The notes: generated by a model not told the origin, from the sequence alone. DNA of 64,000 nucleotides from Candidatus Zixiibacteriota bacterium (GCA_030613505.1 JAUWLW010000002.1:16925-80924); one strand, 5' to 3'. Shown: positions 477 through 31,931, counted from the first letter of the stretch. Numbers and translations are program-made.

Positions 477-1106
477 TCAGCGATACAGCGTTTTGACGCG
501 GCCGAGCGAGGTCGGCGCGACGCCGATGCCCTCGAGCGTTATGCGCATGTGGTGCCAGTAGTTGACGAGCGAGATCGAGCCGTTTACGTCGTAGTAGCCG
601 CGGTTTGTTCCGGCCGTCGCGTACGTCGACGTCTGGCCGAGCTTATCCGAGTCCTTCCAATAAACCTCTATTATGAGATTGCGCCGGCCGTCGTATCGGA
701 AGTCGGTATCGAAGGCCCAGCCGAACCAGGCGCCCCGTTCCGCGTAAATATACTGCTGACTCCGGCTGTAGATGTCGACCGGCGTGTTGCCGCCGTAGTT
801 GGCCTCGAAGTTATACGTCAGCTGCGAGAGCGACGTGTGGCACAAGCGCAGTTTGAAGTTGTGATAGGTGCCCGCTTTGTTCTCGGCCCCCGAGAGGTGG
901 CACCGCCACTCCCACTTCGTTATCGTACCCGCGGGGACGGCGTCGGTCGACAGAACCAGGTCCTGGTTCCGAACCCAGTTCTGCCCTCAACAACACCGGA
1001 AGGGGTACAGCGATTGGAGCTCGGTCCCGCCGACCGTTACGGTATCGCCTCGGGCGAGCGGCACGACGGCGGCTAGCGCGCACGCTATTATCAACGCTCT
1101 GGACAT
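477..1106 (-). CDS. secreted paralog A, putative selenoprotein (in-frame TGA 987-989, motif YPFRCC*GQ), 209 aa
   Basis: ATG 1106 with GGGGAAA RBS; signal peptide MSRALIIACALAAVVPLARG; frame continues through TGA into ORF 477..845; C-term VAPTSLGRVKTLYR. Confidence 0.85.
951..971 (-). promoter_or_regulatory. SECIS-like hairpin of paralog A
   Basis: CGGAACCAG-GAC-CTGGTTCTG, +16 to +36 after TGA. Confidence 0.75.
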
Positions 1107-1125
1107 AGAGGTTTCCCCTTTTCCG

Positions 1126-1773
1126 CTACCGGTGCAGCGTTTTGACGCGGCCGAGCGAGGTCGGCGCGACGCCGACGACGCTGATCGTAAGGCGCATATG
1201 GTGCAGGTAATTCATTAACTCGCCCTGGTTCGGGTAGCCGTGTTGGGGGTTGCCGTACCGAATCGACGAGTATAGGCCGCGGGACATGATCTTGGTAATG
1301 TACGTGGGAGCCGCCCCCTCGCCGGCGTCCTCCTCCCACCAAACTTCTATTATAAAGTTATCGCGGCCGTTGTACGCGAAGGGCGTGCCGAAGGGCCAGC
1401 CGAACCACGACTCGGCGGGCGGGTTGACGTTGTGCGAGCTGCGATAGAACACGCGTACCGGCGTGTTGCCGGCGTAATTGGTTTGAAAGGTATTCGTAAG
1501 CGCGTTGAGGTTCGTGTGGCATAGTTTTATCCTGAAATCTTTATAGGTCCCCCCGACTATACTACCGTTCGCGTGCCACTCCAACTTCGTAATCGAACCG
1601 GCGGGCACGGCGTCGCTCTGAAGAACCAGGTCCTGGATCCTCACGGCGCTGTAGTCTCAACACCCGTAGAACGGGAACCCCTCGGTGCTTTGGGTTCCGC
1701 CGACGACGACCTGTACCGCGAAAACCGGGGCGGCGGTCAGAAAGGCGGCGGTAAAAATCGCAAACGTCTTCAT
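1126..1773 (-). CDS. secreted paralog B, putative selenoprotein (in-frame TGA 1657-1659, motif FPFYGC*DY), 215 aa
   Basis: ATG 1773 with GGGAG RBS; signal peptide MKTFAIFTAAFLTAAPVFA; in frame with ORF 1126..1644; C-term VAPTSLGRVKTLHR. Confidence 0.85.
1621..1641 (-). promoter_or_regulatory. SECIS-like hairpin of paralog B
   Basis: AGGATCCAG-GAC-CTGGTTCTT (one U-U mismatch), +16 to +36 after TGA. Confidence 0.7.
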
Positions 1774-1823
1774 TTCGAATCTCCCTGTTGGCGCTACGGC
1801 CATGAATTCAAATTCACGATAAT

Positions 1824-1852
1824 ATGATATCTGAGGTTTGAATACGCGTCAA
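1824..1852 (-). promoter_or_regulatory. sigma70-type promoter for paralogs B-A
   Basis: TTGACG-N17-TATCAT on minus strand. Confidence 0.6.
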
Positions 1853-1921
1853 GTTAATTACTCGTGACAAAACCGGCGTTCCGGCCGGTTCTCTGGACGC
1901 GGGTTCTTTCGGGGAAAATGG

Positions 1922-2626
1922 CTACGAGAGGCCGTATTCGCGCAGTAGACCCTCGTCCGTAAGGATTTCGCGCGCCGGCCCGGCCGCGACGACACGTCCT
2001 CGCGCGAGGACTGCAACGTCGGCGCAAAGCTGCGCGACGAACGCCAGGTCGTGGCTCGCGATTACCTTGGTGCCGCCGAGTGAACCCAGCAGTCCGGCCA
2101 GCTCGCGACGGCCTCGGCCGTCGAGGTTCGCCGTCGGCTCGTCGAGCGCGAGTACGTCCGGTTTCAAGGCCAGCGCCGCGGCGAGCGAAGCGCGCCGCCG
2201 TTCCCCCAGCGACATGTGGTGGGGGGAGCGCTTCTCGTAGCCTTGCAGGCTCGTTGCGGCCAGGGCCTCCCGGACGCGCGCGGTCACTGCTTCGTCCGGC
2301 AGACCTAAGTTCCGCGGGCCGAAGGCGACGTCGTCCTCCAGGCGCGGCATGAAGAGCATATCGTCCGGGTTCTGGAAGACGAGGCCGACGCGGCGCCGTA
2401 TATCTTTAACGTTCCGCTTCGTTATCGGTTCGCCGAATATCTCCACCGCGCCGTCGCCGTTCAATATGCCGTTGAGGTGCAACAGCAGCGTCGATTTGCC
2501 GGCGCCGTTGGCGCCGACGACGCCGACGGTCGCGCCCGCTTCGACCGTGAGGTCTACGCCGTTCAACGCCGACGTACCGTCAGGGTAGGCGTAGCTAAGG
2601 TTTTGTATTTTTATTGCGACGGTCAT
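1922..2626 (-). CDS. cbiO: Ni/Co ECF transporter ATPase
   Basis: Walker [16 protein letters not shown], LSxGE-like MSLGE, LDEPT; operon with cbiM/cbiQ. Confidence 0.92.
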
Positions 2627-3303
2627 ATTTTATTTAAGTCGTAACCGCGGCTGAGCATCGCGGCCCAGATCCGCTCGGCGCGTTCGTAGCTGCGGACGAA
2701 GAGCGCGGCCACCGCGGGCCCGAGCGTCCGGAATTGGGCGAGCCGCCTGCGGCCGAAGTAGCGCGCCGCCCACGCCCGCTGTAGCCGCTCGATTTCTTCC
2801 ACCAGCACGAATATATAGCGATAGGTAAACGAGAGCAGGGATAAAAGAAATACCGGAACGCGGAACCAGGCCAACCCTTTCAGTAAAGATTGGAACGGCG
2901 TTGTCGCGAGTAAAAGAACGACGTACGCGAGGGAAAGGTAAGCTTTAACGATTACCGTCGCGTATAACCGCAGGCCGGCGTCGGAAATTACCGCGGCGTG
3001 GCCGAAGGCAGGCAATTGCCATATGGCCCGGCCTTCCGTGGTAAAGGGGAGGAAAATCCCTATTATAATGGAGAAAGGGAGTACGGCTGCCGCGCGAGCG
3101 AACACGTACCGAAACGGCAACCGGGCCGCGGCGACGGCGGCCACGAGGAGGGCCGCGGCCGCGGCCGGCACGTACCAGGGGGGCGCGCGAAGGGCGTTTA
3201 GGGTAACGATTGCCGCCGCCGCGACTATTATTTTTACCCGGGCGTCGCGGCGGTGAAAGAAGCTGTCGCGTTCGCTGTACTTGTCGAGGAAGCTGTGGCG
3301 CAT
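2623..3303 (-). CDS. cbiQ: Ni/Co ECF transporter T component
   Basis: DARVK N-term, [25 protein letters not shown] motif. Confidence 0.92.
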
Positions 3304-3591
3304 CTAATTACGGCGTTTACGGAGCGTTGCCGCCAACGCGAAGGCTACGGCGAACGTCAGCGCCGTCCCTAAGCCGCCCGCTAAGGCGGTCGCGAGCCGT
3401 TCGCCCCTTACGCCGGGGAACGCGTAGTCCGGAACCGGCGACGAGACGAGGGGTTCGCCCTCGCCCCGGCCCAGGAAACCTTTGGCTTGTGCAACTCGCT
3501 CGAGGCCGTCGAGCCAGCTCGAGGCGAACGGCGAAACGATTACGCCGAGGAATAGCGCCGCGGCCAGCGCAACCCAGGTGAACTTTTTCAC
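3304..3591 (-). CDS. PDGLE-domain (NikN/CbiN-like) accessory membrane protein
   Basis: GTG start overlapping cbiM stop (GTGA); SPFASSWLDGLERVA and PVPDY motifs; two TM segments. Confidence 0.85.
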   Translation of the reverse strand: MKKFTWVALAAALFLGVIVSPFASSWLDGLERVAQAKGFLGRGEGEPLVSSPVPDYAFPGVRGERLATALAGGLGTALTFAVAFALAATLRKRRN

Positions 3592-4235
3592 CGCGCGCCA
3601 CCCCCCGGCGCGAGCTCGAGCAGGTCGGGCCGTGTCGCCCGAAGCGCGCCCAGCGCCAGCGCCGTTATGAGCCCTTCGCCGACGCCGATGACGGCGTGTA
3701 CGACCGTCATCGCCGGGAGGACCACGGCCAACGGTATCGTTCCCGATATGGCAAGCTCCACCGCGCACGTTGACGCCGCCGCCACTACGGCGAGCCAGGC
3801 CGCTGCGAAAGACGCGACGAACCTACCGGCCTCGTTCCGCCACAAGCGCCGTATCAAACGGTATAGGCCGTACCCGACGAAAGGCGTGACGACGGCCATA
3901 TTGAACACGTTGGCGCCCAGCGCCAGGACGCCGCCGTCGCCGAAGACCAGCGCTTGGATGACGAGGACGAGCGTCATTACCAACGTGGCCGCCCAAGGCC
4001 CCAGGATGATGGCTGCCAGCGCGCCGCCGGCGAAGTGTCCCGACGTTCCGCCGGCGACGGGGAAATTCAACATCTGCGAGGCGAAGATGAAGGCCGCGAG
4101 CACCGCCATAAGCGGTACGGCGCGCTCGCTCAACGCGCGGCGGGCGCGCGCGGCCGCGACGGCGACGAAACCTGCTCCGACGACATCGAGTGCTACGAAC
4201 GTCTTGGCGTCCAGGAAACCGTCGGGAATATGCAT
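3588..4235 (-). CDS. cbiM: Ni/Co ECF S component CbiM/NikM
   Basis: MHIPDGFL metal-binding N-terminus, GTSGH, GDGG, HAVIGVGEG. Confidence 0.95.
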   Translation of the reverse strand: MHIPDGFLDAKTFVALDVVGAGFVAVAAARARRALSERAVPLMAVLAAFIFASQMLNFPVAGGTSGHFAGGALAAIILGPWAATLVMTLVLVIQALVFGDGGVLALGANVFNMAVVTPFVGYGLYRLIRRLWRNEAGRFVASFAAAWLAVVAAASTCAVELAISGTIPLAVVLPAMTVVHAVIGVGEGLITALALGALRATRPDLLELAPGGGAR

Positions 4236-4245
4236 GCGCGCTCCT

Positions 4246-4992
4246 TTAGAACACGGCCCACGTCGCGCCTACGGTGGCGCCGAATTCACCTTCCGCGGCG
4301 CCGAAGCCGAACGAAACGCCGGCGTCCAAAACGAGGGCTTTTACGACGGCGTAACTAAACCCGCCGCCGGCCGACATTGCGTACTTACCCGTCTCTTCAT
4401 CTCGGGCGAAGTCGGCCAGTACCTCGGCCGCTACGCCGAGACGTTCCCCGGGGAAAACCTCGGCCGCAACAGCCGCGAATGCGCAACCCTTGGCTTCGCG
4501 GCTCTTAGGAAACGCGTGGCTGTAGCCCACGTTGCCGTGGAGCGTCGCTGCGCCGACGGCGAGACTCGCGGCCGCCAAGGCGGCGACGTCGTTCGAGCCG
4601 CTACCGAGGCCCCGGACCTCGTCCCCCGTGGCGAACTTTATCTCCGGGACGACGGCCAACGTCAGGAGCCTGACCTCCGCCAGCTTGAACTTGGCGCGCG
4701 CCGCGACGTCACCGAAGCCGAAGGCCTTTTCGCCTCCTTCGACCCTAGAGAGGACCACCGGGACTTCCATTGCGGCGTCGAAGACGTCCGCCACGCCGTA
4801 CGTGACGACGAGGCCGTGGCCGTATTGCCGGCACTCTTTCGGCGCGTCGGCGTACTCGAGGCCGAATTCCAGTTCCAACGACCGGCGGCCGACGGTATAA
4901 GCGTCTTCGGTCGCCAGCGGCCGGCCCGCCCAGGAGGGGACGGCGGCCACGTAGAATATCAGTACCGCGTATAATATCCTCATATAACCCAC
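4246..4992 (-). CDS. putative outer-membrane beta-barrel transporter (start may be ATG 4983)
   Basis: Signal peptide, RPLATEDA N-term, GFGD..K motif, alternating beta strands, C-terminal Phe. Confidence 0.7.
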   Translation of the reverse strand: MGYMRILYAVLIFYVAAVPSWAGRPLATEDAYTVGRRSLELEFGLEYADAPKECRQYGHGLVVTYGVADVFDAAMEVPVVLSRVEGGEKAFGFGDVAARAKFKLAEVRLLTLAVVPEIKFATGDEVRGLGSGSNDVAALAAASLAVGAATLHGNVGYSHAFPKSREAKGCAFAAVAAEVFPGERLGVAAEVLADFARDEETGKYAMSAGGGFSYAVVKALVLDAGVSFGFGAAEGEFGATVGATWAVF

Positions 4993-5019
4993 GTAACACT
5001 ATTATAAAATATGTGTTAC
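4993..5019. promoter_or_regulatory. probable NikR operator
   Basis: Perfect inverted repeat GTAACAC-N13-GTGTTAC between nikR and the uptake operon; it contains a minus-strand TATAAT. Confidence 0.75.
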
Positions 5020-5047
5020 TAGAATCTAATAAAAAAAGGCGCTCGTG

Positions 5048-5467
5048 TCAAGGTAATTCTTTACCCGCGGCTACGAGGGTGAGCTTGCCGTGCTTGACGC
5101 CGCGGGCGCCGATAAGGTGGTCCGCCAGGGCTCGGATCTCGCTTGCTTTCCCCCTGACGACGAGGACTTCGAGGCAGCGGTGGCGCTCGAGGTGGACGTG
5201 AAGGGTGGAGACGACGACGCCGGCGTGTTCGTGCTGAATGTCGGTGAGTTTCTCCTGGAGGTCGGGGACGTGGTGGTCGTAAACCAGCGTAACGGTCCCG
5301 ACCGCGGGGCCGCGCCCCGCCTTCCACGCCTCCTCCGCCAGGTAGTCCCGGAGGAGGTCGCGAATGGCCTCCGAACGGGAGGCGTAGCCCTTGCGATCTA
5401 TCAACCGGTCGAACTCGCGCAGGAGCTCTTCCGCCAGCGAAACGCCGAAACGACTCGTTTTTGACAT
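5048..5467 (-). CDS. nikR: nickel-responsive regulator NikR
   Basis: RFGVSL..SRSEAIRD ribbon-helix-helix; YDHH, QH, HVHL..CLE Ni-binding residues. Confidence 0.96.
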   Translation of the reverse strand: MSKTSRFGVSLAEELLREFDRLIDRKGYASRSEAIRDLLRDYLAEEAWKAGRGPAVGTVTLVYDHHVPDLQEKLTDIQHEHAGVVVSTLHVHLERHRCLEVLVVRGKASEIRALADHLIGARGVKHGKLTLVAAGKELP

Positions 5468-5501
5468 ATCTAAGAAATAGTCGTATTGAAAGGTTGCTGC
5501 T

Positions 5502-7004
5502 TCAGAATTTACTCCAGAACAATAGATTATACAACAGGGCTTGTCCTACGTTCAAGACGATGAATATCAACGGCATCGCCGCCGTCCCCCGTTCGCGGCT
5601 AAGACGCGTAAGCTCCGCCGCCGCGGGAACGACGAACATCGGGACGAGGAACGCGCCCACCCGCTCCATTTCGCCCAATACGAGTCCCGAGAAGTTAAAC
5701 GCCAAAAACGCCGCCGCGAACGACAGCGTAATAGCGCCGTAGATAGACCGGCGGACTTCCTTTACGGTGATCGCCCTGAATAATCCCCGCGCATACAGTA
5801 CCGCGGTGGGGATGCCCATCGAGGCCGCCAGCGTGAATAAGTTGGCGAATACGTAGACGCCGTACTGCCGGTGCCCCGAGCCCGGCGCTTCGAATCCGGG
5901 TAGGCCGAGGGTCCTTCCGATGAATTTAACTACGTCGTCGCCGGCGGCGTGTATTCTTTGGGCTTCGGCGAAGCACCGCTTGAAGACGGCGACGTGGTCG
6001 TAGCCGGTTACGAGCTGGAAGGCGGCGAGCGCCGCGAAGGCGACGGCGACCGCCGTAACCCACCATCCGAACGAGCGGAGCCAACCGCGGCCCTTTATCG
6101 CCGCGGCCAGCGCGAACGCTCCCAGGATGGGCACGAGCGCCGCCAGCACGTACGACGTCGTCAGCGCTACCGCCAGGGCGACGCCCGCCGCTACCGCCCA
6201 GGGCCAGGGCCTTTTGGTCGTGGCCGCCAAGAGGCCGAAGGTCATTATCGCTGCCGCGAGCAGGCAGTTAAGGCCGTCGGGTTCCGAGCCGAAAATCAAT
6301 AATATTGGCGCGGTGGCCAGTAGGGCCGCGGCCCAAAGGGCCCGGCGTTTGTCCGTTATGGCTCGCGCGCCGTAGTAGAGGACCGGTACGCTGGCGGCGG
6401 CGATTACCATAAATGCGAGAGCGAGGGCGTACGTATTGCCGCCGAGCAAACGGTCGAGGCCGCCGAGCAGCCAATAGACGAAGGCGGGACGGACGCGGCA
6501 ATGGGCGTGGACGTATACGAGCTCCGTAACGCGTGCGATGTCAACGAGCGGATGGGGTAGGCCGAGTATATTGCGGGCGTCTTCGACGAAGCGCTCGACC
6601 CAGACGAGCGGTAGGTTGCGGCCTACGCCGGGGGCGAAGCTGACGGCGATTATTCCCGCCAAGCCGCCGGCCCCGATAATGAGGGGCTTCCCGGACCGCG
6701 CGCCGTAGAATATCGCCCAGGCCCCGGCCGCGGCGGCCGCGGCGGTCGGCAGCAGGAGCCAAGATACCCTCGGGTCGGAATAAGCGTTGAATGGTAAAAA
6801 CCAGGTCCGCCCTTCGTAGCTCGAAAATTCGAAAATTACGTTCAGGATGAAGACGAGGACCACGGCGGCGTAAGCGGCCGTTATTTGGACGTAGACGTTG
6901 CCGCATATCCGGCGCCATGGCTTCTTCGCCTTGAGGCCGGCTTCCTGGTCGTCGCGCCCCGGACGTGTGCTTTTGCCGTCGGCGTTAGATTTCAACGTCT
7001 CCAC
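5502..7004 (-). CDS. multi-TM GT-C/PMT-like glycosyltransferase-type membrane protein
   Basis: ~11-13 TM; RVRP, GYDHVAVF, GEMER motifs; paralog of 7034..8473. Confidence 0.6.
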   Translation of the reverse strand: METLKSNADGKSTRPGRDDQEAGLKAKKPWRRICGNVYVQITAAYAAVVLVFILNVIFEFSSYEGRTWFLPFNAYSDPRVSWLLLPTAAAAAAGAWAIFYGARSGKPLIIGAGGLAGIIAVSFAPGVGRNLPLVWVERFVEDARNILGLPHPLVDIARVTELVYVHAHCRVRPAFVYWLLGGLDRLLGGNTYALALAFMVIAAASVPVLYYGARAITDKRRALWAAALLATAPILLIFGSEPDGLNCLLAAAIMTFGLLAATTKRPWPWAVAAGVALAVALTTSYVLAALVPILGAFALAAAIKGRGWLRSFGWWVTAVAVAFAALAAFQLVTGYDHVAVFKRCFAEAQRIHAAGDDVVKFIGRTLGLPGFEAPGSGHRQYGVYVFANLFTLAASMGIPTAVLYARGLFRAITVKEVRRSIYGAITLSFAAAFLAFNFSGLVLGEMERVGAFLVPMFVVPAAAELTRLSRERGTAAMPLIFIVLNVGQALLYNLLFWSKF

Positions 7005-7033
7005 GGATTTGCCTTCAACGTAGTCGCCGCGTT

Positions 7034-8473
7034 TTAGAACAAGAAGATCTTGTAAACGAAAGATTGAATCATCATGAGCGCGAAAATACCGGCTACCAAC
7101 TTACCGCCGCCTCGCCGCTTCGCAAGGTCCGCTAACGCCACTCCCGCGGCGACGAAGAACGCCGGATACAGGAAAAGCCACACGCGTTCGACTTCGCCCA
7201 GGACCAATCCGGAAAAGTTGAAGGCCAGAAACACCAGCAAGAAGCCGATAGTAGTCGCGCCGTAAAACGAGCGGCGGGTGCGCTTTTGCCGGATTACCCG
7301 GAATACTTCGCGTACGAATAGGACGCCGACCGGGACGCCGACCGCGACGAAGGCCGTGAAGAGGTTGCCGAACGCGTAGAACCAGTATGGCCGCGCGGCG
7401 GCCTTGCTCGCCGTATCGGCGTGGCGCCCGAATAGCTTGCCTATTAACGCTAATACGTTAGTCCCCGCCGAGGGGAGCTGCTGGTTGGCCCAGCACGCCT
7501 TTTTGAAGACGGCCACGTGGTCGTAGCCGGTGGCGAGCTGGAACGCCGCGAGCGCCGCGGCCGCCACCGCGGGAATGAGCAGCCACGCCAGGCCCGCTCT
7601 CGTCCACCGCCGGCCCGAAACCGCTGCGGCTATGGCGAACGTCACGAAAACGGCCACGTATATCCCGAGCGGGAAGTACGTCAGTAGCGCGACGGCGAGG
7701 ACGACGCCGGCCGCGGCGGCCCAGCGCCAGGGCGTCGCGGAGGAGGCGGCCTTCAATCCCAGCGCCAACAGCGCCGTGCCCAAAAGGCAGTACAGCCCGA
7801 CGGGCCCGGCGCCAAAGAATAGGAGCGATGGCGAGCACGCGAACAACGCCGCCGCTAGTAGCGCCTCCTCCCGTCCGGTTACGACGCGCGCCGCGGCGTA
7901 CAATACCCACACGCAGGCCGCGGCGACCGCGACGTACACGAGCAAGATGGCGTAAATGTTGCTTTCGCACAAACGGTCGACCAGACCGAGGGACCAAAAA
8001 GTGAGGCCCGGGCGCGTGCGGCCCAACGAGCTGAGGTTTTTCATAGCCTCGACGTAACCCGCGAAGACGTTGGGTACGTCGAAGGCCGCGCGCGTATTGA
8101 GGAGGTACCTGTTGAGCGCGAGAAGAGGGTACGTTCGACCGAAGGCGGGGCCGAGGCTTATGGCGGCGACATTTACGAACGCGCCCAGCGGAAGGACCCA
8201 GTGCTTGCGCGCGCGAACGCCCCATACGAGGAGCGCGGTGGCGCCGACGACGGCCGCGGCCGCGGGGAGGAGGCGCCACGAGAAGCGGGGGTCCCAATAC
8301 GTAAAAAGCGGCGAGAGCCAGATTTTGCCCAGATATTCCGAGCGGAAGAGGAAGGCCCGGGCGGCCAAAACCGCGGCGACGAAGCCGTAAGCGACGGCTA
8401 GGTAGACGTAAAAATTCGACGCCCGGCGCGCGGGCGCGGTTTTACCGGCGGCTTCCGGCTGTGGCGCTTCCAC
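7034..8473 (-). CDS. multi-TM GT-C/PMT-like glycosyltransferase-type membrane protein
   Basis: RTRPG, GYDHVAVF, GEVERVW motifs; tandem paralog. Confidence 0.6.
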   Translation of the reverse strand: MEAPQPEAAGKTAPARRASNFYVYLAVAYGFVAAVLAARAFLFRSEYLGKIWLSPLFTYWDPRFSWRLLPAAAAVVGATALLVWGVRARKHWVLPLGAFVNVAAISLGPAFGRTYPLLALNRYLLNTRAAFDVPNVFAGYVEAMKNLSSLGRTRPGLTFWSLGLVDRLCESNIYAILLVYVAVAAACVWVLYAAARVVTGREEALLAAALFACSPSLLFFGAGPVGLYCLLGTALLALGLKAASSATPWRWAAAAGVVLAVALLTYFPLGIYVAVFVTFAIAAAVSGRRWTRAGLAWLLIPAVAAAALAAFQLATGYDHVAVFKKACWANQQLPSAGTNVLALIGKLFGRHADTASKAAARPYWFYAFGNLFTAFVAVGVPVGVLFVREVFRVIRQKRTRRSFYGATTIGFLLVFLAFNFSGLVLGEVERVWLFLYPAFFVAAGVALADLAKRRGGGKLVAGIFALMMIQSFVYKIFLF

Positions 8474-8554
8474 GTCGAAACTATAATTGATTACCCTTGG
8501 AGCCGCAATAAAAAAACCCGCCGGGCGGGCCTTCGAGTCGGCGGCGGTTAATTC

Positions 8555-9322
8555 CTAGCCGCGGGCGAGCAGCGCCGCGCCGAGGGCGCCGACGAACTGG
8601 GGCTCCGGCAGGACCTCCACGTCGCGGCCGAGCGCGGCGGCCAACGCCCGGGCGAAACCCCTGTTTAGCGCTACGCCCCCCGAGAGGACGTAGCGGCTCC
8701 CGCCCAACCGGGAGGCGAGCGACGATACGCGTTCCGCCACCGCGCGCAATACCCCCGCGCCGATGGCGGCCGGTTCTACGTCCTCGTGCAGCAGGCCGAC
8801 GACTTCCGATTCGGCGAAGACGGTGCACATATTGTTGACCTTGGCCGCGTCGGGCCGGGACGCGTCGAGGGCCGCCAGCTCGAGCAGATCCATTTCCAGC
8901 GCCCGGGCCATGATCTCGAGAAAGCGGCCCGTCCCGGCGGCGCAGCGGTCGTTCATCGCGAACTCAGCCACGCCGCCGCGGCCGTTTACTCGTATAGCTT
9001 TAACGTCCTGGCCGCCGACGTCGACGACGGTGACGTCGCCGCCGACGTGTTCGAAGGCGCCGCGGGCGTGGCACATTATTTCGGTTACGGCGCGGTCCGC
9101 GAAAGGTACGCGCGCGCGGCCGTAACCCGTACCGACGACGCGAGCCACCTCCGGTTCGGTTGCCCTTAATTCGGCCAAAGCCTCGTCGAAGGCTTTACGC
9201 GCCGCGACGGCGCCGGCGACGCCGGTGGGGAGGGCCGCTTTGGCGGCGGCCCTCCCGTCGTCGTTAATAACCACGCACTTGGTCGCCAGCGACCCTACGT
9301 CTATGCCGGCGTAATAAGCCAT
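8555..9322 (-). CDS. ATP-dependent activator (HgdC/BadF ASKHA family, DCCP-R-like)
   Basis: GIDVGS, TGYGR, DVGGQD, MNDRCAAGTGRFLE, CTVFAESEV motifs. Confidence 0.92.
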   Translation of the reverse strand: MAYYAGIDVGSLATKCVVINDDGRAAAKAALPTGVAGAVAARKAFDEALAELRATEPEVARVVGTGYGRARVPFADRAVTEIMCHARGAFEHVGGDVTVVDVGGQDVKAIRVNGRGGVAEFAMNDRCAAGTGRFLEIMARALEMDLLELAALDASRPDAAKVNNMCTVFAESEVVGLLHEDVEPAAIGAGVLRAVAERVSSLASRLGGSRYVLSGGVALNRGFARALAAALGRDVEVLPEPQFVGALGAALLARG

Positions 9323-10600
9323 TTACGAGCTCACTTGCTCGAGGAGCGCCTCGACGCGCGTTTTGAGCTGTCCCACGTCGCCGTCGGAGTAGTCGGTCTC
9401 CAGAGCGAGCATCGGGATGCCGAGGTCGTCGGTGAACTTCTTGACGTTACCTTGTTCGACGAGGTACGGTGTGCAGAACGACAGCGTCGCGTGTATTATA
9501 CCCTGGGCGCGGGAATTTTTGTACAGGTAATCGATGTCCTCGAGCCGTTGCTCGTTGGGCGTAAAGCAAGCGCAGTTGATCCCCATGTAGTGGTCGAGCA
9601 ACGCCTCCTTCATCTCCTTCAGCGTCTTGGCGTCCTCGGCGACCGTATTCTTGTAATAACGGAAGCCGGTGCACATCTCCTCGGCGACGACAGCGGCGCC
9701 GGAGGTTTCGACGACCTGGTGGACCTTCCAGTTGGGGATGGCCATCGGCGTCCCGGAGATCATTAGGCGGGGCGTCCCCTTGTCGAAGACGCCCTCGCCG
9801 ACGGCGACCCGTTTCTCGAGCTCGTCCGCGACCTCGTTGGTCTTTTGCGTGAAGCGGTCCATGTCGTCGTAGAAAGATATTTGCATAATGAGCAACGCGT
9901 CCTTACCAGAGATGGGAGCCGGGTCGTTCCAGCGGAGCTCGTGCACCCGCCTTATGGCGCGGCGTTTAGCGTTGACCTTTTTGACGGCCGCGGCGAGGTT
10001 TTCCTCGGTGAGCTTATTGCCCGTAGTCTTCTCCATGGCGGCGATGAAGTCGTCGAGTTCGGCGCGCCACAGCTCGCGGTCCGCGGGGCCCTTTTTGTTG
10101 GGTACTTCCATCACGTATACGGGATGGATCTTGCCGAGCAGCTCGTACGCTTTCTTCTTGCCGTCGCACGTCGTCTCGCCCACCACGACGTCGGCGGACT
10201 CGAAGTAGGGGCAGATCTTACCGAGCTTGAAGCCGTAGAACGACTTGATGAGCGGGCACAGGTTGCGCGGTAGCTCGGCCTCGGCTATGGGAACCGAGAA
10301 GTCCGCGCCGGCGCATAGCCCAACGGCGACGCCGTCCAACGCGACGATGACCTCCTCCGGCACGAACAGGCAGAACGTCCCGACCACCGTGCCGCCCTTC
10401 TCTTTATGGTCCAGGAGTTCCTTGATGCGGAGGCCGTGGACTTGCGAGATTACGAAGTCGTAGTACGCCATAGTTTCGGGGCGGTTGGGTTGGTCCGTGA
10501 ACCACTCTAAGTAGAGTGACCCCAGCGCGCCCATAAGTACGTCGTGCTTTTCCAAGTCGAGCCCCAGGTCTTTCCACATGTCGGTCCAGTCTTCGGCCAT
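9323..10600 (-). CDS. double-cubane-cluster-type reductase / 2-hydroxyacyl-CoA dehydratase family
   Basis: ATG 10600 with AGGAGG RBS; GTFCLFVPEE, GLCAG, RNLCPLIKS, CPYF, GETTCDGKKK, EEMCTG, CACFTPN, FCTPY, ETDYS; Cys-rich single-subunit type with adjacent activator. Confidence 0.85.
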   Translation of the reverse strand: MAEDWTDMWKDLGLDLEKHDVLMGALGSLYLEWFTDQPNRPETMAYYDFVISQVHGLRIKELLDHKEKGGTVVGTFCLFVPEEVIVALDGVAVGLCAGADFSVPIAEAELPRNLCPLIKSFYGFKLGKICPYFESADVVVGETTCDGKKKAYELLGKIHPVYVMEVPNKKGPADRELWRAELDDFIAAMEKTTGNKLTEENLAAAVKKVNAKRRAIRRVHELRWNDPAPISGKDALLIMQISFYDDMDRFTQKTNEVADELEKRVAVGEGVFDKGTPRLMISGTPMAIPNWKVHQVVETSGAAVVAEEMCTGFRYYKNTVAEDAKTLKEMKEALLDHYMGINCACFTPNEQRLEDIDYLYKNSRAQGIIHATLSFCTPYLVEQGNVKKFTDDLGIPMLALETDYSDGDVGQLKTRVEALLEQVSS

Positions 10601-10616
10601 GATCGTCCTCCTATAT

Positions 10617-10651
10617 AAAAAACCAGCGTCCTTTTCCAACGGCGACGCTGG
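10617..10651 (-). terminator. intrinsic terminator in 5' leader of the reductase gene
   Basis: CCAGCGTC-N13-GACGCTGG-TTTTTT immediately before the AGGAGG RBS. Confidence 0.7.
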
Positions 10652-10659
10652 GCGAACAT

Positions 10660-10835
10660 GGCCGAACGCGGTTCGGCACGTACGGGTGTTATGGATTACG
10701 CAACGCCCACGCGTCGTCTCCGTTTAAACGTCGTTGCGGACCCGAACCGGGTCTCGCGGCGCTTTTCGCGCCTCGTACCTCACGTTTTCCAGAACGCGTG
10801 GGCCTTCACGAAGATCACCACCTTGAAAGAAATTT
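10660..10835 (-). ncRNA. structured leader RNA or ncRNA of unknown class
   Basis: 10-bp stem 10705-10714/10794-10803 enclosing further stems and hairpins; lies between promoter and terminator. Confidence 0.5.
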
Positions 10836-10843
10836 AGTACGGA

Positions 10844-10872
10844 ATCCTAAAAGAAATATCGGCGTTTGTCAA
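10844..10872 (-). promoter_or_regulatory. sigma70-type promoter
   Basis: TTGACA-N17-TAGGAT on minus strand. Confidence 0.65.
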
Positions 10873-11093
10873 TAAAAAAGGGTACCGGGGCGGCGGCCGC
10901 GCGGTTGTCAGGCCGCAGCCGCGTGACGTTTGAAGCAGCCGGGCACGCCGGAATGAGCGCGAGAAAACGGCGAAATATTATAGATGACCAATTGCGTTAC
11001 ATAAGGATATTTAATGCTTGACATGGTAAACGTGCTGTGTTAATTAATTACCAAAGTAATAGAAATGAAAATAACTTATAAGGAGGCAGCGCG

Positions 11094-11711
11094 ATGAGGA
11101 TTTTAGGGATCATATCTTTATGTGCTTTAGCTGCCGGCGCCGCGTTCGCGGGTTCCGTTACGGTCGGTAGCCCGAGCATAACGGCCGCGTACCCGTTCCG
11201 GGGGTGTTGAGGCGTCGATTCCGTACGGAGCCAGGACCTGGTTCTGAGCACTGACGCCGTCCCGGCGGGGACCGTTGTGAAGTGGGAGTGGTTCGCCAGC
11301 TCGACGGTAAGTGCCGGTACTTTCAACAATTTTAGCCTTAAACTCTGCCACACCAATAAGACGGCGCTCACGACCGATTTCACCGGCAACTACGGCGGCA
11401 ACACGCCGGTACAGGTCTATTACAAGAGCTCCGAGTACATCGCCGCCACGCCGAACACCTGGTTCGGCTTCGCGTTCGCTACCGGTTTCAACTACAACGG
11501 CAAAGACAACCTGATCGTCGAGGTCGAGTGGAGCGGCGACTCCGGCGGCTACGCGTACAACTACTGGAGCTCGGCCACCGCGCGATGCATGTACAAGTAC
11601 AACAGTTACTCGCCGCGGGTATATAATTACCTGCATTACATGCGTATTACGACCGGGTATTTGGGCGTTACGCCGACGTCGCTGGGACGCGTGAAGTCGT
11701 TGTACCACTAA
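11094..11711 (+). CDS. secreted paralog C, putative selenoprotein (in-frame TGA 11208-11210, motif YPFRGC*GV), 205 aa
   Basis: AAGGAGG RBS, signal peptide MRILGIISLCALAAGAAFA, in frame with ORF 11277..11711; C-term VTPTSLGRVKSLYH. Confidence 0.88.
11226..11246 (+). promoter_or_regulatory. SECIS-like hairpin of paralog C
   Basis: CGGAGCCAG-GAC-CTGGTTCTG, +16 to +36 after TGA. Confidence 0.75.
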
Positions 11712-11733
11712 TTTTCGACCATCCTCGGAAACG

Positions 11734-11762
11734 AAAAGGCCGGCCGCGAGGCCGGCTTTTTT
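11734..11762 (+). terminator. intrinsic terminator
   Basis: GGCCGGCC-gcga-GGCCGGCT followed by T-run. Confidence 0.8.
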
Positions 11763-11811
11763 CGTAGCGTCGCCGCCCGAGGCTGCGTTTCCCCCTTAAA
11801 GGCGTTTTTGC

Positions 11812-11840
11812 TTGACAACCGGCGGCTTACCGTTTAAAAT
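11812..11840 (+). promoter_or_regulatory. sigma70-type promoter of paralog D
   Basis: TTGACA-N17-TAAAAT. Confidence 0.7.
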
Positions 11841-11906
11841 ATTATAAGGAGAAAGGTTTTACTCAGCACATAAATATTCCGGCTATATAATTTAGGAGGT
11901 ACCGTG

Positions 11907-12521
11907 ATGAGAGTATTAGTCGTCGGTTGTCTGTGCGCTATGGCGGTGGGCGCGGCGTTCGCGGACCACTTCGTCATCGGCAGCAAGGGCAGTATGGCGT
12001 ACTACCCGTGGCGGGGCTGTTGAGGCGTCGACTCGGCACGGAGCCAGGACCTGGTTCTTAGTACGGACGCCATCCCGGGCGGCACCATCGAGAAATGGGA
12101 GTGGTGCTGTTATTCCAGCGACCCGGGGACGTACAACAACCTCTCCGTTAAGTTGTGTCACACCAAGGTCACCAAGCTCGTGACCAACTTCGCCGCCAAC
12201 TTCGACGGCAACACGCCCCTCGAGGTATTTAAGAAGAGCTCCTACTACCTCAGCGGCAGCGCCGGTAACTGGTTCGGCTTCGCCTTCGATAAGAAATTCG
12301 AGTACAACGGCAAGGATAACCTGGTCGTCGACGTCTCCTGGAACGGCGACAGCGGCGGCACCTGCTACACCTATTGGAGCCCGGGGACGGCCCGCTGCGT
12401 CTACAACTATAACGGCGGTACGGTGTATTTGACCAACTACGTGCACTACATGCGCATTACGCTCGAGCCGAACGCCGTCGCGCCGACGTCGCTCGGTCGC
12501 GTCAAGTCGTTTTATAGGTAG
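11907..12521 (+). CDS. secreted paralog D, putative selenoprotein (in-frame TGA 12021-12023, motif YPWRGC*GV), 204 aa
   Basis: AGGAGG RBS, signal peptide MRVLVVGCLCAMAVGAAFA, in frame with ORF 12153..12521; C-term VAPTSLGRVKSFYR. Confidence 0.88.
12039..12059 (+). promoter_or_regulatory. SECIS-like hairpin of paralog D
   Basis: cGGAGCCAG-GAC-CTGGTTCTt, +16 to +36 after TGA. Confidence 0.72.
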
Positions 12522-12545
12522 GTTTTCGCGGGCGTGGCGAAAAGA

Positions 12546-12571
12546 ACGGGGCCCGGCGGGCCCCGTTTTTT
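12546..12571 (+). terminator. intrinsic terminator
   Basis: ACGGGGCCC-ggc-GGGCCCCGT followed by T-run. Confidence 0.8.
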
Positions 12572-12688
12572 ATTCCGGCATGGCCGGTATTTCGCCGGCC
12601 GAGAGGGGTTGCGATTGATTTTATAGGATAAATTTGGTAAACTTTAGCGCGCGCGCGGGTAAGCCGTTAGCGCCGCCCGAGGGGAAGT

Positions 12689-13321
12689 ATGAAGACGAAA
12701 ATTTTTGCAGCGATATGTTTCGTGACTTTGGCCGTCGGCGCCGCCTCGGCCGAAAAGGTCGTGATCGGCTACCGTACGTACATGTCATCGTTCCCGTTTT
12801 ACGGCTGTTGAAATACTCGAACGTCGCGGTGCCAGGACCTGGCGCTGAAAGAGGAAGGGCTGACGGCGGGGACCGTCACGCGGTGGGAGTGGTACGCGAG
12901 CTCGATGATTACCGTCGGCGGCTTCAAGGATTTCTGGGTCAAGTTGTGTCACACCTCGCGCGACAAGCTCGTCGCCGATTTCCAGAAGAACTACGACGGC
13001 AATAAACCGGTCCAGGTTTTCGCCGACGAAGAGCTGCGCATAAAGCCGCCGGCGTATACCTGGTTCGGCTTCGACTTCTCGCCCACGTTCGAGTACAACG
13101 GCGAGGACAACCTGATCGTCGAAGTGCACTGGAAGGAGCGGAGCGGCGCGCCGGGGGTCGTCACGTACTGGACGCCGAAGGAGGGCCGGTGCTGCATGTA
13201 CGCCGGGCCGGTGCCGTGCGCACCGGCGGTCTTCGACTTCGTACACTACATGCGGGTGACGATATCGCCCGTCGCCGTGGCGCCGACGTCGCTGGGCCGC
13301 GTCAAGGCGGTATACCGTTAA
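12689..13321 (+). CDS. secreted paralog E, putative selenoprotein (in-frame TGA 12809-12811, motif FPFYGC*NT), 210 aa
   Basis: GAGGGG RBS, signal peptide MKTKIFAAICFVTLAVGAASA, in frame with ORF 12905..13321; C-term VAPTSLGRVKAVYR. Confidence 0.87.
12827..12847 (+). promoter_or_regulatory. SECIS-like hairpin of paralog E
   Basis: CGGTGCCAG-GAC-CTGGCGCTG; compensatory changes relative to A and C. Confidence 0.75.
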
Positions 13322-13352
13322 GGCCGCGCTTAAAGGCCGGGGGCAAACCGAT

Positions 13353-14000
13353 TTGCGGACGATATTGATATTAACCGTTTGCTTCGTCGCGGCCGCCGGC
13401 GCCGACCGTATCCTGGTGGGCGACCCGGCGCAGCGCATCAACTTCCCGTACTACGGCGGCGGCGGGTACGAGGCGATGAGGTGTATGGAGGTCGTCCGCA
13501 AGACCGACGGCCTCGTCGCCGGCGAGATTAGGCGGTGGGAGTGGCAGTCCGGCGAGCTGGACCCAACGACGGGAAAGTTTTATAAGTTCAAGTTGCGGCT
13601 CTGCCACACCACGCGTGCGGACCTGGCGCCTCCCTTCAACGCCAACTACGAGGGCCGCACCCCCGCGGAAGTCTTCAACGCCGACCCCGCGACCATCTCG
13701 ACGCGGATTCGGGAGTGGTTCGGCTTCGATTGCAAGCCCGCTTTTCGGTACAACGGCTCGGACAACTTGCTGGTCGAGGTTTGGTGGGAGGGCGACGACG
13801 ACGGCGGCGGCCTTGTCTTCACCGCCGACGTGCGCGAACAACAACGCTGCCTGCTCGCCTACCGGAAGGACGGCGTCGCGGAGTACGGCTATCCCAACCA
13901 GGGCAAGGCCTTCAACTGGCTCCACTTCATGCGAATAACGCTCGAGCCCGACGCCGTGTGGCCGACGTCGCTCGGGCGCGTTAAGGCCGTCTACCGGTAA
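13353..14000 (+). CDS. secreted paralog F, TGA-free family member (FPYYGGGG), 215 aa
   Basis: Uninterrupted ORF that aligns along its whole length with the TGA-containing paralogs (WEW, LCHT, NY.G.TP, WFGF, YNG.DNL.VEVWW, HFMRIT, PTSLGRVKAVYR). Confidence 0.9.
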   Translation: MRTILILTVCFVAAAGADRILVGDPAQRINFPYYGGGGYEAMRCMEVVRKTDGLVAGEIRRWEWQSGELDPTTGKFYKFKLRLCHTTRADLAPPFNANYEGRTPAEVFNADPATISTRIREWFGFDCKPAFRYNGSDNLLVEVWWEGDDDGGGLVFTADVREQQRCLLAYRKDGVAEYGYPNQGKAFNWLHFMRITLEPDAVWPTSLGRVKAVYR

Positions 14001-14120
14001 CCGGTTCTAAGACGGCGCGGTTATACGCTATCCGCGGGACGGATTATTTTTAACTTCAACCGACCCCCGGTACGCGTGAAAGACGTACCCGTTGTCGGCG
14101 AGAAGCGGCATAAGGTCCAC

Positions 14121-14149
14121 TTGACAAGTAACGTTGATTACCTTAAAAT
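14121..14149 (+). promoter_or_regulatory. sigma70-type promoter of paralog G
   Basis: TTGACA-N17-TAAAAT. Confidence 0.7.
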
Positions 14150-14201
14150 TTTTAACGGCTCGAACGTGACGAAAAAGGGTCAAACCCAAGGGGGTTGATT
14201 T

Positions 14202-14843
14202 ATGCGAAAAGTAGTAATAACGAGTCTCGGCGTCTTGGCCGCGGGCGCGGCCCTGGCGGGCCAAGTTATGGTCGGCGGCCAAGGGACCGCCGTGAATTAC
14301 CCGTATTGCGGCAGTTGAGACAACGCTTATCGGGGCCAGGCGCTGGTCCTGAAAACGGACGCCGTTCCCGCGGGCGATATTACCAAGTGGGAGTGGTACG
14401 CTTCCCAGAACCAACGGCCGGGCGATTTCAATAAATTCAGCCTTAAACTTTGCCACACCTCCCTGACGACCCTCACCGATACCTACACCAAGAATTACGA
14501 CGGCAAGACGCCGGTCCAGGTTTACTACCGCGACCCGGTGCGCATCGCCGCTACGCCTTTCCAGTGGTTCGGCTTCGCATTCGACAAGGCGTTCGCGTAC
14601 AACGGCACCGACAACCTGCTCTTCGAGGTGTGGTGGGTGGGCGATAACAACGGCAACGCGTACACCTACTGGATGCCCAAGACAGGCCGGTACGTGTATT
14701 CGTATATCAAGGGGTCGACGCCTTATAACGGGTACCCCGACAAGGGGCTAGTGGTGAACTACCTTCACTACATGCGGATTACCATTTCCGCGAGCGCTGT
14801 CGAGGCATCGTCGCTGGGTCGCGTCAGGGCGCTTTATCGTTAG
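14202..14843 (+). CDS. secreted paralog G, putative selenoprotein (in-frame TGA 14316-14318, motif YPYCGS*DN = CxxU), 213 aa
   Basis: AAGGGGG RBS, signal peptide MRKVVITSLGVLAAGAALA, in frame with ORF 14538..14843; C-term VEASSLGRVRALYR. Confidence 0.87.
14331..14351 (+). promoter_or_regulatory. SECIS-like hairpin of paralog G
   Basis: CGGGGCCAG-GCG-CTGGTCCTG, +13 to +33 after TGA. Confidence 0.72.
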
Positions 14844-14872
14844 GCCGGAACTTAGGTTTAACTATGAGACTC

Positions 14873-14897
14873 AAGCCGGCCTATAGGCCGGTTTTTT
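14873..14897 (+). terminator. intrinsic terminator
   Basis: GCCGGCC-tata-GGCCGGT followed by T-run. Confidence 0.78.
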
Positions 14898-14922
14898 CTC
14901 GCGGTAGCGCCGATATATCCGC

Positions 14923-14951
14923 TTGACACGCGCGCGAAGACGGTTTAGTAT
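14923..14951 (+). promoter_or_regulatory. sigma70-type promoter of paralogs H-I
   Basis: TTGACA-N17-TAGTAT. Confidence 0.65.
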
Positions 14952-14986
14952 GAAAGGGCCTAAGGGCAACGTCGGGAGGTCGAGCT

Positions 14987-15643
14987 ATGCTACGGAAATT
15001 GGTAATCCTCTTATGTGCGGCCGCGGCCGGCGCCTCGGCGGCGCAGTTCGTCGTCGGCAGCGCGGAGACGGCCGTCAAGGCGCCGTTCTCGGCGTGTTGA
15101 GGCATCGAGGCCTACCGGTACCAGGGCCTGGTGCTGAAGACGGACGCCATCCCCGCCGGCACGATTACGCGGTGGGAGTGGTACGCCGCGTCGGGGACGG
15201 GCAGCGTACGGCATGCTCTACTTAGCAACTTCTCCATAAAAATCTGCCACACGTCGTTCAACGCTCTCACCACGCCGTTCGCGGCCAATTATGACGGCAA
15301 TACGCCGGTGACGGTCTTCTCCGCCAACCCCGTAAGGGTCGACCCGGAGTACAATAACTGGTTCGGTTTCGACTGCAAGCCTACCTTCGCCTACAATGGG
15401 ACCGACAATTTCCTCGTCGAGACGTGGTGGGACGGCGGCAACGACGGCGGCCCCAACTGTTGGATGAAGTACGTCCTGACCTCGAGCCGGGCGTGCATCG
15501 CCTCGCGGGTGCGCGGCGTCTCCCAGCACGGCTACCCGAACGGCGGCAAGGTCGAGGGCTACAACATGTACATGCGCATAACGATGGGCGGAGCGACCGT
15601 CGGCTCGAGCTCGCTGGGCCGAGTTAAAGCGCTCTATCGGTAA
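14987..15643 (+). CDS. secreted paralog H, putative selenoprotein (in-frame TGA 15098-15100, motif APFSAC*GI), 218 aa
   Basis: GGGAGG RBS, signal peptide MLRKLVILLCAAAAGASA, in frame with ORF 15131..15643; C-term VGSSSLGRVKALYR. Confidence 0.87.
15116..15136 (+). promoter_or_regulatory. SECIS-like hairpin of paralog H
   Basis: CGGTACCAG-GGC-CTGGTGCTG, +16 to +36 after TGA. Confidence 0.75.
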
Positions 15644-15661
15644 TTCGGAGGAGGCGGTTTT

Positions 15662-16321
15662 ATGATGAGGACGACCGCGATCGCGGCGCTGTTCCTTATG
15701 GCGGTGTCCTTTGCCGGCGCGGACCTGGTAATCATAGGGAAAGGCCTCGGGGCCCCCGGCGGCTCGACGCCCTGGTCCGGCTGTTGAGGCGTGTCGGCGC
15801 GTAGGCACCAGGTATTGGTGCTCAAATCGGACGGCCTTCCCGCGGGTACGATAACCAAATGGGAGTGGAACGCCGCCCGCGATTTGCTCGCCGGCGGTTT
15901 CTACAACTTCAAACTGACGTTCTGTCATACCTCCCTTACGGCGTTAACCGACACGTACGTCAATAATTACGACGGGAAAACGCCCGTTACGGTCTACAGC
16001 CGCAACCCGGTGAACATCCCTACGGTACCGTCGAACCAGTGGTTCGGCTTCGGCTTCGATAAACCGTTCGCCTACAACGGCCGCGACAACCTCGTCGTCG
16101 AGGTATGGTGGGTAAATGACACCAACGGCGGCGGCAACACGCAGTGGAACTTCCCGGTGAACGGCCGCTGTTGCTTCTCGTATATCGTGAACGGTAACCC
16201 ACAAAGCGGTTACCCGGACAAAGGCCGCGTCTCGTACTTCATGCACTACATGCGCGCGACGGTTTCGCCCTCGGCAGTGGCGCCGACGTCCTTGGGACGC
16301 GTTAAAGCTTTGTTCGGTTAA
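15662..16321 (+). CDS. secreted paralog I, putative selenoprotein (in-frame TGA 15785-15787, motif TPWSGC*GV), 219 aa
   Basis: GGAGGAGG RBS, signal peptide MMRTTAIAALFLMAVSFAGA, in frame with ORF 15791..16321; C-term VAPTSLGRVKALFG. Confidence 0.87.
15803..15823 (+). promoter_or_regulatory. SECIS-like hairpin of paralog I
   Basis: aGGCACCAG-GTA-TTGGTGCTc, +16 to +36 after TGA. Confidence 0.72.
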
Positions 16322-20823: not shown

Positions 20824-20829
20824 CCAACT

Positions 20830-21750: not shown

Positions 21751-21932
21751 ACTAAGGTTTCAATTACTTTTATTATATACGCGAATATCGTAATTATATC
21801 CGACCGTTTAGTGTTATTAACGAACGGTTAGGAAGTTTTCTTTTCCGTAGCCACGCGGTTCTGTTTAATACTTAAGCTTTCGGGGATGCTTAAAGTTTTA
21901 CCGGATGCAGAATAGCAAAGCGTTTTAAAACT

Positions 21933-31860: not shown

Positions 31861-31931
31861 GAACTTTTAAACCACGGCAATCGTCGCTATTAGTTTATGC
31901 GTTGCCACTTCAAACTACTCCGTAAAATATT

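Follow-up and report, generated by a model that had tools for sequence, protein, structure and literature searches.

The stretch of DNA considered here, 64,000 nucleotides (nt) from a Candidatus Zixiibacteriota bacterium (GCA_030613505.1, JAUWLW010000002.1:16925-80924), raises the question of whether in-frame TGA codons in a cluster of paralogous genes are read as selenocysteine (Sec), and whether the hairpin encoded just downstream of each is the selenocysteine insertion sequence (SECIS) that would direct this. The window, as this 64-kb stretch is called below, lies on a single contig of a 2.86-Mb genome, and coordinates are counted from its first letter. Nine paralogous genes encoding proteins of 205-225 amino acids (aa) emerge when TGA is read as Sec (U), and the short flanking open reading frames (ORFs) then merge. 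In eight of the nine there is a single in-frame TGA about 40 codons in, just past a signal-peptide-like N-terminus, and a Cys precedes it either directly (seven paralogs, as GC-U, CC-U or AC-U) or by three residues (paralog G, C-G-S-U).

The eight hairpins very probably act as bacterial SECIS (bSECIS) elements, with the UGA specifying Sec in secreted beta-sandwich proteins of about 210 aa. Sec most likely adjoins a Cys in these proteins, as C-G-x-U, the putative ancestral form, or as (G/C/A)-C-U. This role for the hairpins had been put forward in an original prediction made from the window's sequence, and it is supported by a codon-aware null, by compensatory changes on the gene tree, by synonymous constraint, by the loss of the stem where Sec is absent and by the complete Sec machinery of the genome.

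Hairpin shape and position

Each of the eight window hairpins spans 21 nt, with a 9-nt arm on either side of a 3-nt loop, and the first loop base is G in all eight. All nine pairs form in A, C, E, G and H and eight form in B, D and I, with stem-alone energies of -8.8 to -12.9 kcal/mol (Table 1). The first stem base lies 15 nt from the A of the TGA in seven genes and 12 nt from it in G. The element is translated as R-x-Q-x-L-(V/A)-L, and base 1 of codon 2 pairs with the synonymous base 3 of codon 6, as A-U, U-G, G-C or C-G in different genes. RNAfold placed an additional lower helix around hairpins C, D and I.

The eight hairpin sequences listed in the original prediction were correct letter for letter, the 8-9 bp stem and the 3-nt loop opening with G were found in all of them, and the co-variation reported between the middle triplets is real, residing in the pair between codons 2 and 6. 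The placement downstream of the TGA also held, but the exact range of 13-16 nt did not, the measured distances being 12 or 15 nt. The 20-nt consensus proposed for the UGA paralogs, MGGNNCCAGGNNYTGGNNCT, matched the window exactly eight times and was absent from 100 dinucleotide-preserving shuffles. Across the whole genome (2.86 Mb) it has ten matches, all within genes of the same secreted family.

Selection on the hairpin at the RNA level

The contribution of the peptide to the pairing was determined with each heptapeptide held fixed and its synonymous codons resampled by genome usage (from a crude usage table). The peptide alone gives a mean of 4.6-6.3 of nine pairs, the probability of reaching the observed eight or nine is 0.0014-0.089 per gene in the eight window genes, and codon choice contributes approximately three base pairs above the peptide's own yield. 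The Arg codon is always NGG and the codon of the fifth-position Leu always YTG; the preferred codons in the crude genome table are CGC and CTC. With the codon constraint modelled in this way all eight genes still exceed the synonymous null.

To look beyond the window, 78 distinct segments of Sec-encoding family members were drawn from 54 loci and, in addition, from four contigs of the window's own genome. The stem, which begins at the R codon, starts 15, 18 or in one case 21 nt from the first base of the TGA, and 55 of the 78 segments form it with eight or nine pairs in the register seen in the window. In a 74-row alignment of these segments (A2) the 9-bp stem has 85.7% of its cells paired, compared with 78.7 +/- 0.8 in shuffled alignments, and the covariation score is 0.225 against 0.116 (neither value was reached in 500 shuffles); registers slid along the alignment are paired in 23-51.5% of cells only. 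The pair between codon 2 base 1 and codon 6 base 3 (columns 25-39) occurs as AU in 22 rows, GC in 14, UG in 14, UA in six and CG in four, and the 14 unpaired or other rows are mostly distant families in another register together with two rows of the type found on contig C7 (see below).

A gene tree of 76 genes was built with FastTree after removal of two short rows, with the hairpin columns retained, and changes at columns 25-39 were placed by parsimony. Of the 17 events, ten are two-sided on one branch, all from one paired state to another, one is confined to the 5' side and six to the 3' side, three of these being wobble switches. When the third base is drawn from Val codon usage, the probability that at least ten of 11 new 5' bases find a partner is 4.5e-4. 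Synonymous differences were counted in the seven orthogroups with three or more members, which cover 37 genes of the tree's 76 (39 were left out). Over the seven hairpin codons the fraction of synonymous differences is 0.151, compared with 0.286 elsewhere, and of 94 complete seven-codon stretches the one that opens with the R codon has the lowest value. The six stem codons individually range from 0.00 to 0.21, and the loop codon, at 0.31, is at background. The hairpin is maintained by selection at the RNA level, beyond the conservation of the peptide.

Paralogs with and without Sec

The family has 27 members in this genome, 11 with the TGA and 16 without. The 11 Sec genes form a mean of 8.1 of nine pairs (-9.1 kcal/mol) and the 16 others a mean of 4.5 (+5.9 kcal/mol; Mann-Whitney p = 1e-4), and the stem is present in ten of the 11 Sec paralogs and in none of the 16 non-Sec ones. 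The window has its own natural control in paralog F (Table 1), and the orthologues of F likewise have neither TGA nor hairpin. A further paralog, on contig C79, and its two orthologues have lost Sec, with N-S or N-A in place of C-U. All three retain the peptide R-C-Q-D-L-V-L, identical to that of Sec genes whose stems have energies of about -10 to -13 kcal/mol, and in all three the stem has decayed to between -0.7 and -3.4 kcal/mol. The residue at the Sec position of the Sec-less paralogs of this genome is G, S or A.

The 27 family genes end in TAG (13), TAA (12) or TGA (two), such that TGA is largely avoided as a terminator. The idea that TGA is a sense codon throughout the genome was discarded, as TGA ends paralog A and one other of these genes.

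Sec machinery and other selenoprotein genes

The genome encodes a tRNA-Sec (66.7 bits, anticodon TCA), a SelB of 646 aa (319 bits) with GTPase, beta-barrel, SelB-wing_2 and SelB-wing_3 domains, SelA, and a SelD whose gene itself contains one TGA. An in-frame TGA followed by a hairpin was found in selD, in two hdrA-like genes (one of them with a fused MvhD/FlpD domain), in the gene for the large subunit of a NiFe hydrogenase and in genes for four secreted beta-helix proteins, where the motif is C-P-G-U (C-V-G-U in one). This list is a minimum, since the selenoprotein-gene finders written for this work are crude and the first of them recovered three of the 11 family members. The hairpins of these other genes share with the family generic traits only, a loop with a G about 20-27 nt from the UGA, and not the family consensus.

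The beta-helix proteins constitute a second secreted selenoprotein family, with three genes at one locus (L084, G000:C39:41500-44300, minus strand) and one at G000:C62:23456. Its members, about 245 aa long, combine a signal peptide with a NosD/beta-helix domain and have the TGA in C-P-G-U-G-G-G and the same C-terminal tail as the paralogs. In the hydrogenase large subunit (PF00374; L083, G000:C7:13300-14900, minus strand) the TGA lies in an N-terminal R-I-C-G-V-U motif, and its hairpin has the loop AGGC about 20 nt downstream of the TGA. In NiFeSe enzymes Sec is usually in a C-terminal motif.

A covariance model (R1) built on the 74-row alignment was scanned over the whole genome, as had been suggested in order to uncover further hidden selenoproteins. 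It recovered the 11 family members, which are part of its own training set, and the C79 paralog that formerly had Sec; no other selenoprotein gene was found with this model, as expected from its weighting towards sequence. One extra candidate on contig C83 (E = 0.07) was rejected, as its TGA falls outside the reading frame of the unrelated gene that contains it.

Comparison with known SECIS elements

The general bSECIS model, as given in part of a 2026 review, has a loop of 3-9 nt with G in one of its first two positions, a stem of 4-16 bp, 16-37 nt between UGA and loop, and a folding energy of -7.5 kcal/mol or lower (PMC13188914). All eight window hairpins follow an in-frame UGA directly, within the coding sequence, and have a 3-nt loop, a stem of 8-9 bp, G as first loop base and an energy of -7.5 kcal/mol or lower; UGA and loop are separated by 24 nt except in G, where the distance is 21 nt. 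The four properties of the model (loop and stem size, loop G, spacing and energy) are found together in 72 of the 78 family segments. In an excerpt of a structural account, SECIS stems measure 6-8 bp, the conserved G of the loop follows the UGA by about 20 nt, and the hairpin is bound near the mRNA entrance by SelB through its winged-helix domains 3 and 4 (PMC4605307). The window hairpins thus resemble bSECIS elements in their position within the ORF after the UGA, in the G-first 3-nt loop, in the spacing of 21-24 nt, in the stem of 8-9 bp and in the presence of a cognate winged-helix SelB. Nothing about them differs in kind, with the loop at the short end of the range. Two smaller differences are that about half of the family's loops read G-A-N and not the commoner G-[G/U]-N, and that the window hairpins have no bulged nucleotide, unlike those of distant relatives, which have a bulged U. 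At its gathering score, Rfam identified in the 64-kb window a transfer-messenger RNA (tmRNA) and nothing else; to our knowledge this library has no general model for bacterial SECIS elements.

The hairpins of selD, the two hdrA-like genes and the hydrogenase follow the same general plan, with loops AGGCGC (or GCG), GGUA and AGGC, and the apex in selD (..GGCCAAG-GCG-CUGGCC..) resembles that of paralog G. In stem sequence and loop size they are unlike the window hairpins, and CCAG-GNN-CUGG is therefore specific to the family and not a recognition motif for SelB across the lineage. Furthermore, the R and Q codons are kept in Sec-less relatives, and that part of the consensus is therefore a protein constraint. 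The proposal of a lineage-specific minimal SECIS is not supported, as the element fits the general model, other Sec genes of the genome use different hairpins, and the family itself shows two further architectures. The element is an ordinary bacterial SECIS in type, and its consensus reflects common descent and the R, Q and L codons, not an organism-wide motif.

Variation of the element across relatives

Of 25 genomes of the phylum, 21 have the family, and each genome of the window's genus has 11-29 copies. Most copies have exactly one TGA, and 41 of about 150 listed rows have none (hand count). Throughout the family a Cys lies one or three residues ahead of the UGA (CU or CxxU). The phylum's other families have one or two copies per genome, all with C-G-x-U, and they keep the apex CCAG-GNN-CUGG, with a bulged U or a 4-nt loop displacing the lower stem. 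The shifted stem also co-varies, one pair being G.U, A-U, G-C or C-G, and some of these changes involve Leu to Pro or Arg. A different solution is seen in the Sec paralog of contig C7 and its orthologue (L052), in which four of nine pairs form in the usual register and a 12-bp hairpin with a bulged A and the loop GGA, starting 4 nt after the UGA, takes its place (shuffle z -2.6 to -2.8). Across the 78 segments, the first loop base is G in 72.

The bases around the UGA are also biased. The preceding codon ends in T in 58 of the 78 Sec members, a Cys at that position is encoded by TGT 43 times and by TGC twice though TGC makes up about 81% of Cys codons (crude genome table), and G directly follows the UGA in 61. 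This bias may be a recoding context effect or a relic of an origin of TGA from TGT.

The protein family

In public annotation these genes appear as 'hypothetical protein' fragments, 124-171 aa long and starting past the TGA, and the four of the nine paralogs that were searched had no Pfam or NCBIfam match above noise. AlphaFold, run with a nine-row alignment, gave a confident beta-sandwich (predicted local distance difference test, pLDDT, 85.7), the signal peptide and C-terminal tail being disordered; the heptapeptide encoded by the hairpin is a core strand of this model. The protein also has an invariant Cys-His within an L-C-H-T motif. Among solved structures it comes nearest to CBM, PHR and lectin-like domains and to phage tail-tip modules (VIA-align Z of 9-10.9, with 4-11% identity across 143-177 residues; best Foldseek E = 1e-3), a likeness of fold only. 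Profile searches returned 2031 representatives at E <= 1e-3, many of them giant proteins with two to eight copies of the domain, and the R and Q of the strand are conserved among these representatives.

In 382 domain instances, taken from 165 representatives, the Sec column of the Sec-less domain relatives is occupied by S, A, T, G or N, and a Cys lies within six columns of it in 11 of these instances. With no Cys counterpart at the Sec column, Sec and its partner Cys appear to be an innovation of this phylum. They would form a surface-exposed redox site, or a metal- or chalcogen-binding site, on a binding module. Methods based on Sec/Cys pairs underlie most selenoproteome surveys, according to an excerpt of PMC12013277, and this family would be missed by such searches because it has no Cys homologues. 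No mention of the family was found in literature searches on selenoproteins of Coatesbacteria; the supplementary tables of selenoproteome papers may list it. It resembles the CxxU/CU selenoprotein families of hypothetical proteins in a table of the 2026 review (PMC13188914) in its Cys-Sec pair, its SECIS within the ORF and its discovery through TGA read-through alone. As far as the entries of that table go, it is unlike them in having a signal peptide and a sorting-like C-terminal tail, a lectin/CBM/PHR-like beta-sandwich, no Cys homologues, and 11 Sec copies in one genome of 2.9 Mb.

All nine paralogs end in a tail of approximately V-A-P-T-S-L-G-R-V-K-A-L-F-R-stop (for example at 11667-11708), as do a total of 114 ORFs genome-wide, including unrelated NHL-repeat and beta-helix proteins. 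This tail had no NCBIfam or Pfam match in scans of four paralogs, and it looks like an abundant sorting signal.

Alternative explanations

Several observations weigh against reading the hairpins as SECIS elements. In the 74-row alignment two of the shuffle statistics are less favourable than those above, as further pair types were reached by 325 of 500 shuffles and pairs with a change on both sides by 14 of 500; 28 of 74 rows are unpaired at the terminal pair, which shows no compensation on the gene tree, and 27 of 74 at columns 26-38. RNAalifold, suggested as a check in the original prediction, gave no consensus pairs with the ViennaRNA defaults for either this alignment or a 62-row subset, and it recovered the hairpin only with RIBOSUM scoring (-15.9) or relaxed penalties. 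The negative result is due to the default penalty for non-compatible rows, since the hairpin is returned under RIBOSUM scoring and the mean energy of the stem is -10.9 kcal/mol. The distant members L035 and L036 have no convincing hairpin, six of 78 loops begin with a base other than G, and six of 78 segments lack one or more of the four bSECIS properties. Those properties are in any case permissive in a GC-rich genome, as 25% of 2000 random TGAs show them, and membership of the class therefore rests on the tests of selection. The paralogs and the congeneric genomes are not independent samples. Finally, the absence of Cys from the Sec column in all 382 domain instances is unusual for a selenoprotein.

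Some of these points would be expected if the hairpin had no function as RNA and were a by-product of the R-x-Q-x-L-V-L peptide, codon bias and recent descent of the paralogs. The peptide does yield some five or six of the nine pairs by itself, Sec-less members of the wider domain family also keep the R and Q of the 5' arm, the paralogs have a common ancestry, and RNAalifold at its defaults sees no structure. This explanation is nevertheless highly improbable, as codon choice exceeds the synonymous null in every one of the eight genes, ten compensatory double changes have run through a synonymous third base, and synonymous divergence is minimal on the stem codons and not on the loop codon; in addition the same peptide without Sec has a decayed stem, and one Sec paralog has substituted a different hairpin. 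It is likewise improbable, if less extremely so, that the UGA does not encode Sec, being instead a real stop in a pseudogene or split gene, or a codon read through by a standard tRNA with a stimulatory hairpin independent of SelB. The missing Cys homologue and the public annotation, which has C-terminal pieces only, are what such a case would predict. Against it stand a reading frame, an upstream signal peptide, a downstream folded domain and a single TGA in the same column conserved in 21 of 25 genomes from the phylum, the invariable Cys one or three residues before the UGA, and the complete Sec machinery, together with the termination of other genes by TGA (paralog A, for example, ends in one), a hairpin position and loop G as expected of a SECIS, and the disappearance of the hairpin whenever the TGA is lost. 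The hairpin could also serve the mRNA in another manner, with the UGA coincidental, by pausing the ribosome about 45 codons in for signal-peptide targeting or by affecting mRNA stability or attenuation. It does sit where the signal peptide would just have left the ribosome, but 16 non-Sec paralogs with the same signal peptides and domain do without it, the hairpin sequences have no U-tract for a terminator, and what is conserved is its spacing from the UGA, at 12 or 15 nt in the window's eight genes, and not that from the start codon; this last possibility is very improbable.

Proposed mechanism

If the hairpins are SECIS elements as proposed, a ribosome arriving at the UGA would meet SelB-GTP with Sec-tRNA(Sec), tethered through the C-terminal winged-helix domains of SelB to the apex of the hairpin, with the loop G 22-25 nt 3' of the UGA. 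SelB would hand Sec to the A site in competition with release factor 2 (RF2), and the ribosome would then melt the hairpin and translate the conserved strand R-x-Q-x-L-(V/A)-L. We infer the binding of SelB and the insertion of Sec itself from the sequence comparisons above.

The gene cluster and its surroundings

The paralogs and hairpins of the window are listed in Table 1. Near-identical DNA is present in cold-seep and marine-sediment metagenomes of several studies. No RNA dataset was listed as containing this stretch, and one run presumed to be RNA had short contigs of relatives. Contigs from an independent study span the cluster with one to eight differences, and none falls on a TGA or a hairpin among the 40 of 88 differences listed.

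Table 1. Coordinates of the nine paralogous genes and eight hairpins in the 64-kb window (energies are for the stem alone)
Feature	Position	Strand	TGA and motif	Remarks
Paralog A gene, 209 aa	477..1106	-	987-989 (CC-U)	true stop is TGA 477-479; ORF read with TGA as U, and family alignment
Hairpin A	951..971	-		9 bp, loop GAC, 15 nt past TGA; encodes R-N-Q-D-L-V-L; -11.1 kcal/mol
Paralog B gene, 225 aa	1126..1803	-	1657-1659 (GC-U)	
Hairpin B	1621..1641	-		8 bp and one internal U.U, loop GAC; -8.8 kcal/mol
Paralog C gene, 205 aa	11094..11711	+	11208-11210 (GC-U)	AlphaFold beta-sandwich, pLDDT 85.7
Hairpin C	11226..11246	+		9 bp, loop GAC; -11.1 kcal/mol
Paralog D gene, 205 aa	11904..12521	+	12021-12023 (GC-U)	
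Hairpin D	12039..12059	+		8 bp, terminal C/U mismatch, loop GAC; -9.8 kcal/mol
Paralog E gene, 210 aa	12689..13321	+	12809-12811 (GC-U)	
Hairpin E	12827..12847	+		9 bp, loop GAC, middle triplets TGC/GCG; -12.9 kcal/mol
Paralog F gene, 215 aa	13353..14000	+	no TGA; GGGG at site	natural control; peptide R-C-M-E-V-V-R, no hairpin (3/9 pairs, +9.3 kcal/mol)
Paralog G gene, 213 aa	14202..14843	+	14316-14318 (C-G-S-U)	putative ancestral-type motif
Hairpin G	14331..14351	+		9 bp, loop GCG, 12 nt past TGA; -12.9 kcal/mol
Paralog H gene, 218 aa	14987..15643	+	15098-15100 (AC-U)	
Hairpin H	15116..15136	+		9 bp, loop GGC; -11.3 kcal/mol
Paralog I gene, 219 aa	15662..16321	+	15785-15787 (GC-U)	
Hairpin I	15803..15823	+		8 bp, terminal A/C mismatch, loop GUA with G.U closing pair; -10.1 kcal/mol

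Between the two groups of paralogs, the minus strand at 1922-5467 encodes a Ni/Co uptake system of the CbiO/CbiQ/CbiM type, a Phenol_MetA_deg protein resembling an outer-membrane channel, and NikR; next come two PMT_2 glycosyltransferases (5502-8473) and, at 8555-10639, an HgdC/HGD-D pair. The tmRNA gene lies at 31929-32285 on the minus strand (145.9 bits) and encodes the tag peptide ADNYAYAC. The 2-kb stretch at 20001-22000 has a G+C content of 39.5%, compared with approximately 50-69% in the remainder of the window, and may be foreign DNA or a non-coding region.

Implications for the family

On balance we lean, by a modest degree, towards a joint reading in which these genes represent an undescribed family of exported, lectin-like selenoproteins with a Cys-Sec pair in a surface loop, where Sec would be an innovation and not a replacement for Cys. 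The SECIS would have been built onto existing R-x-Q codons and remodelled at least twice, into the C7-type and the bulged form. There would be 11 such Sec genes in the genome of this uncultured sediment bacterium and about 100 in the genus, and together with the beta-helix C-P-G-U family they would make most of the selenoproteome extracellular. The novelty then lies in the protein family, which is secreted, lectin/CBM-like and without Cys homologues, and not in the RNA signal.

The paralogs also form a natural mutagenesis series for SECIS function against coding constraint, covering compensation at synonymous sites, stem-strengthening changes of Leu to Pro or Arg, decay after the loss of Sec, and a replacement hairpin. 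The RNA element would certify about 11 hidden selenoprotein genes here and roughly a hundred in relatives, all of which are truncated by annotation pipelines, and if the joint reading is true, searches that depend on Sec/Cys homology would systematically miss families of this kind.

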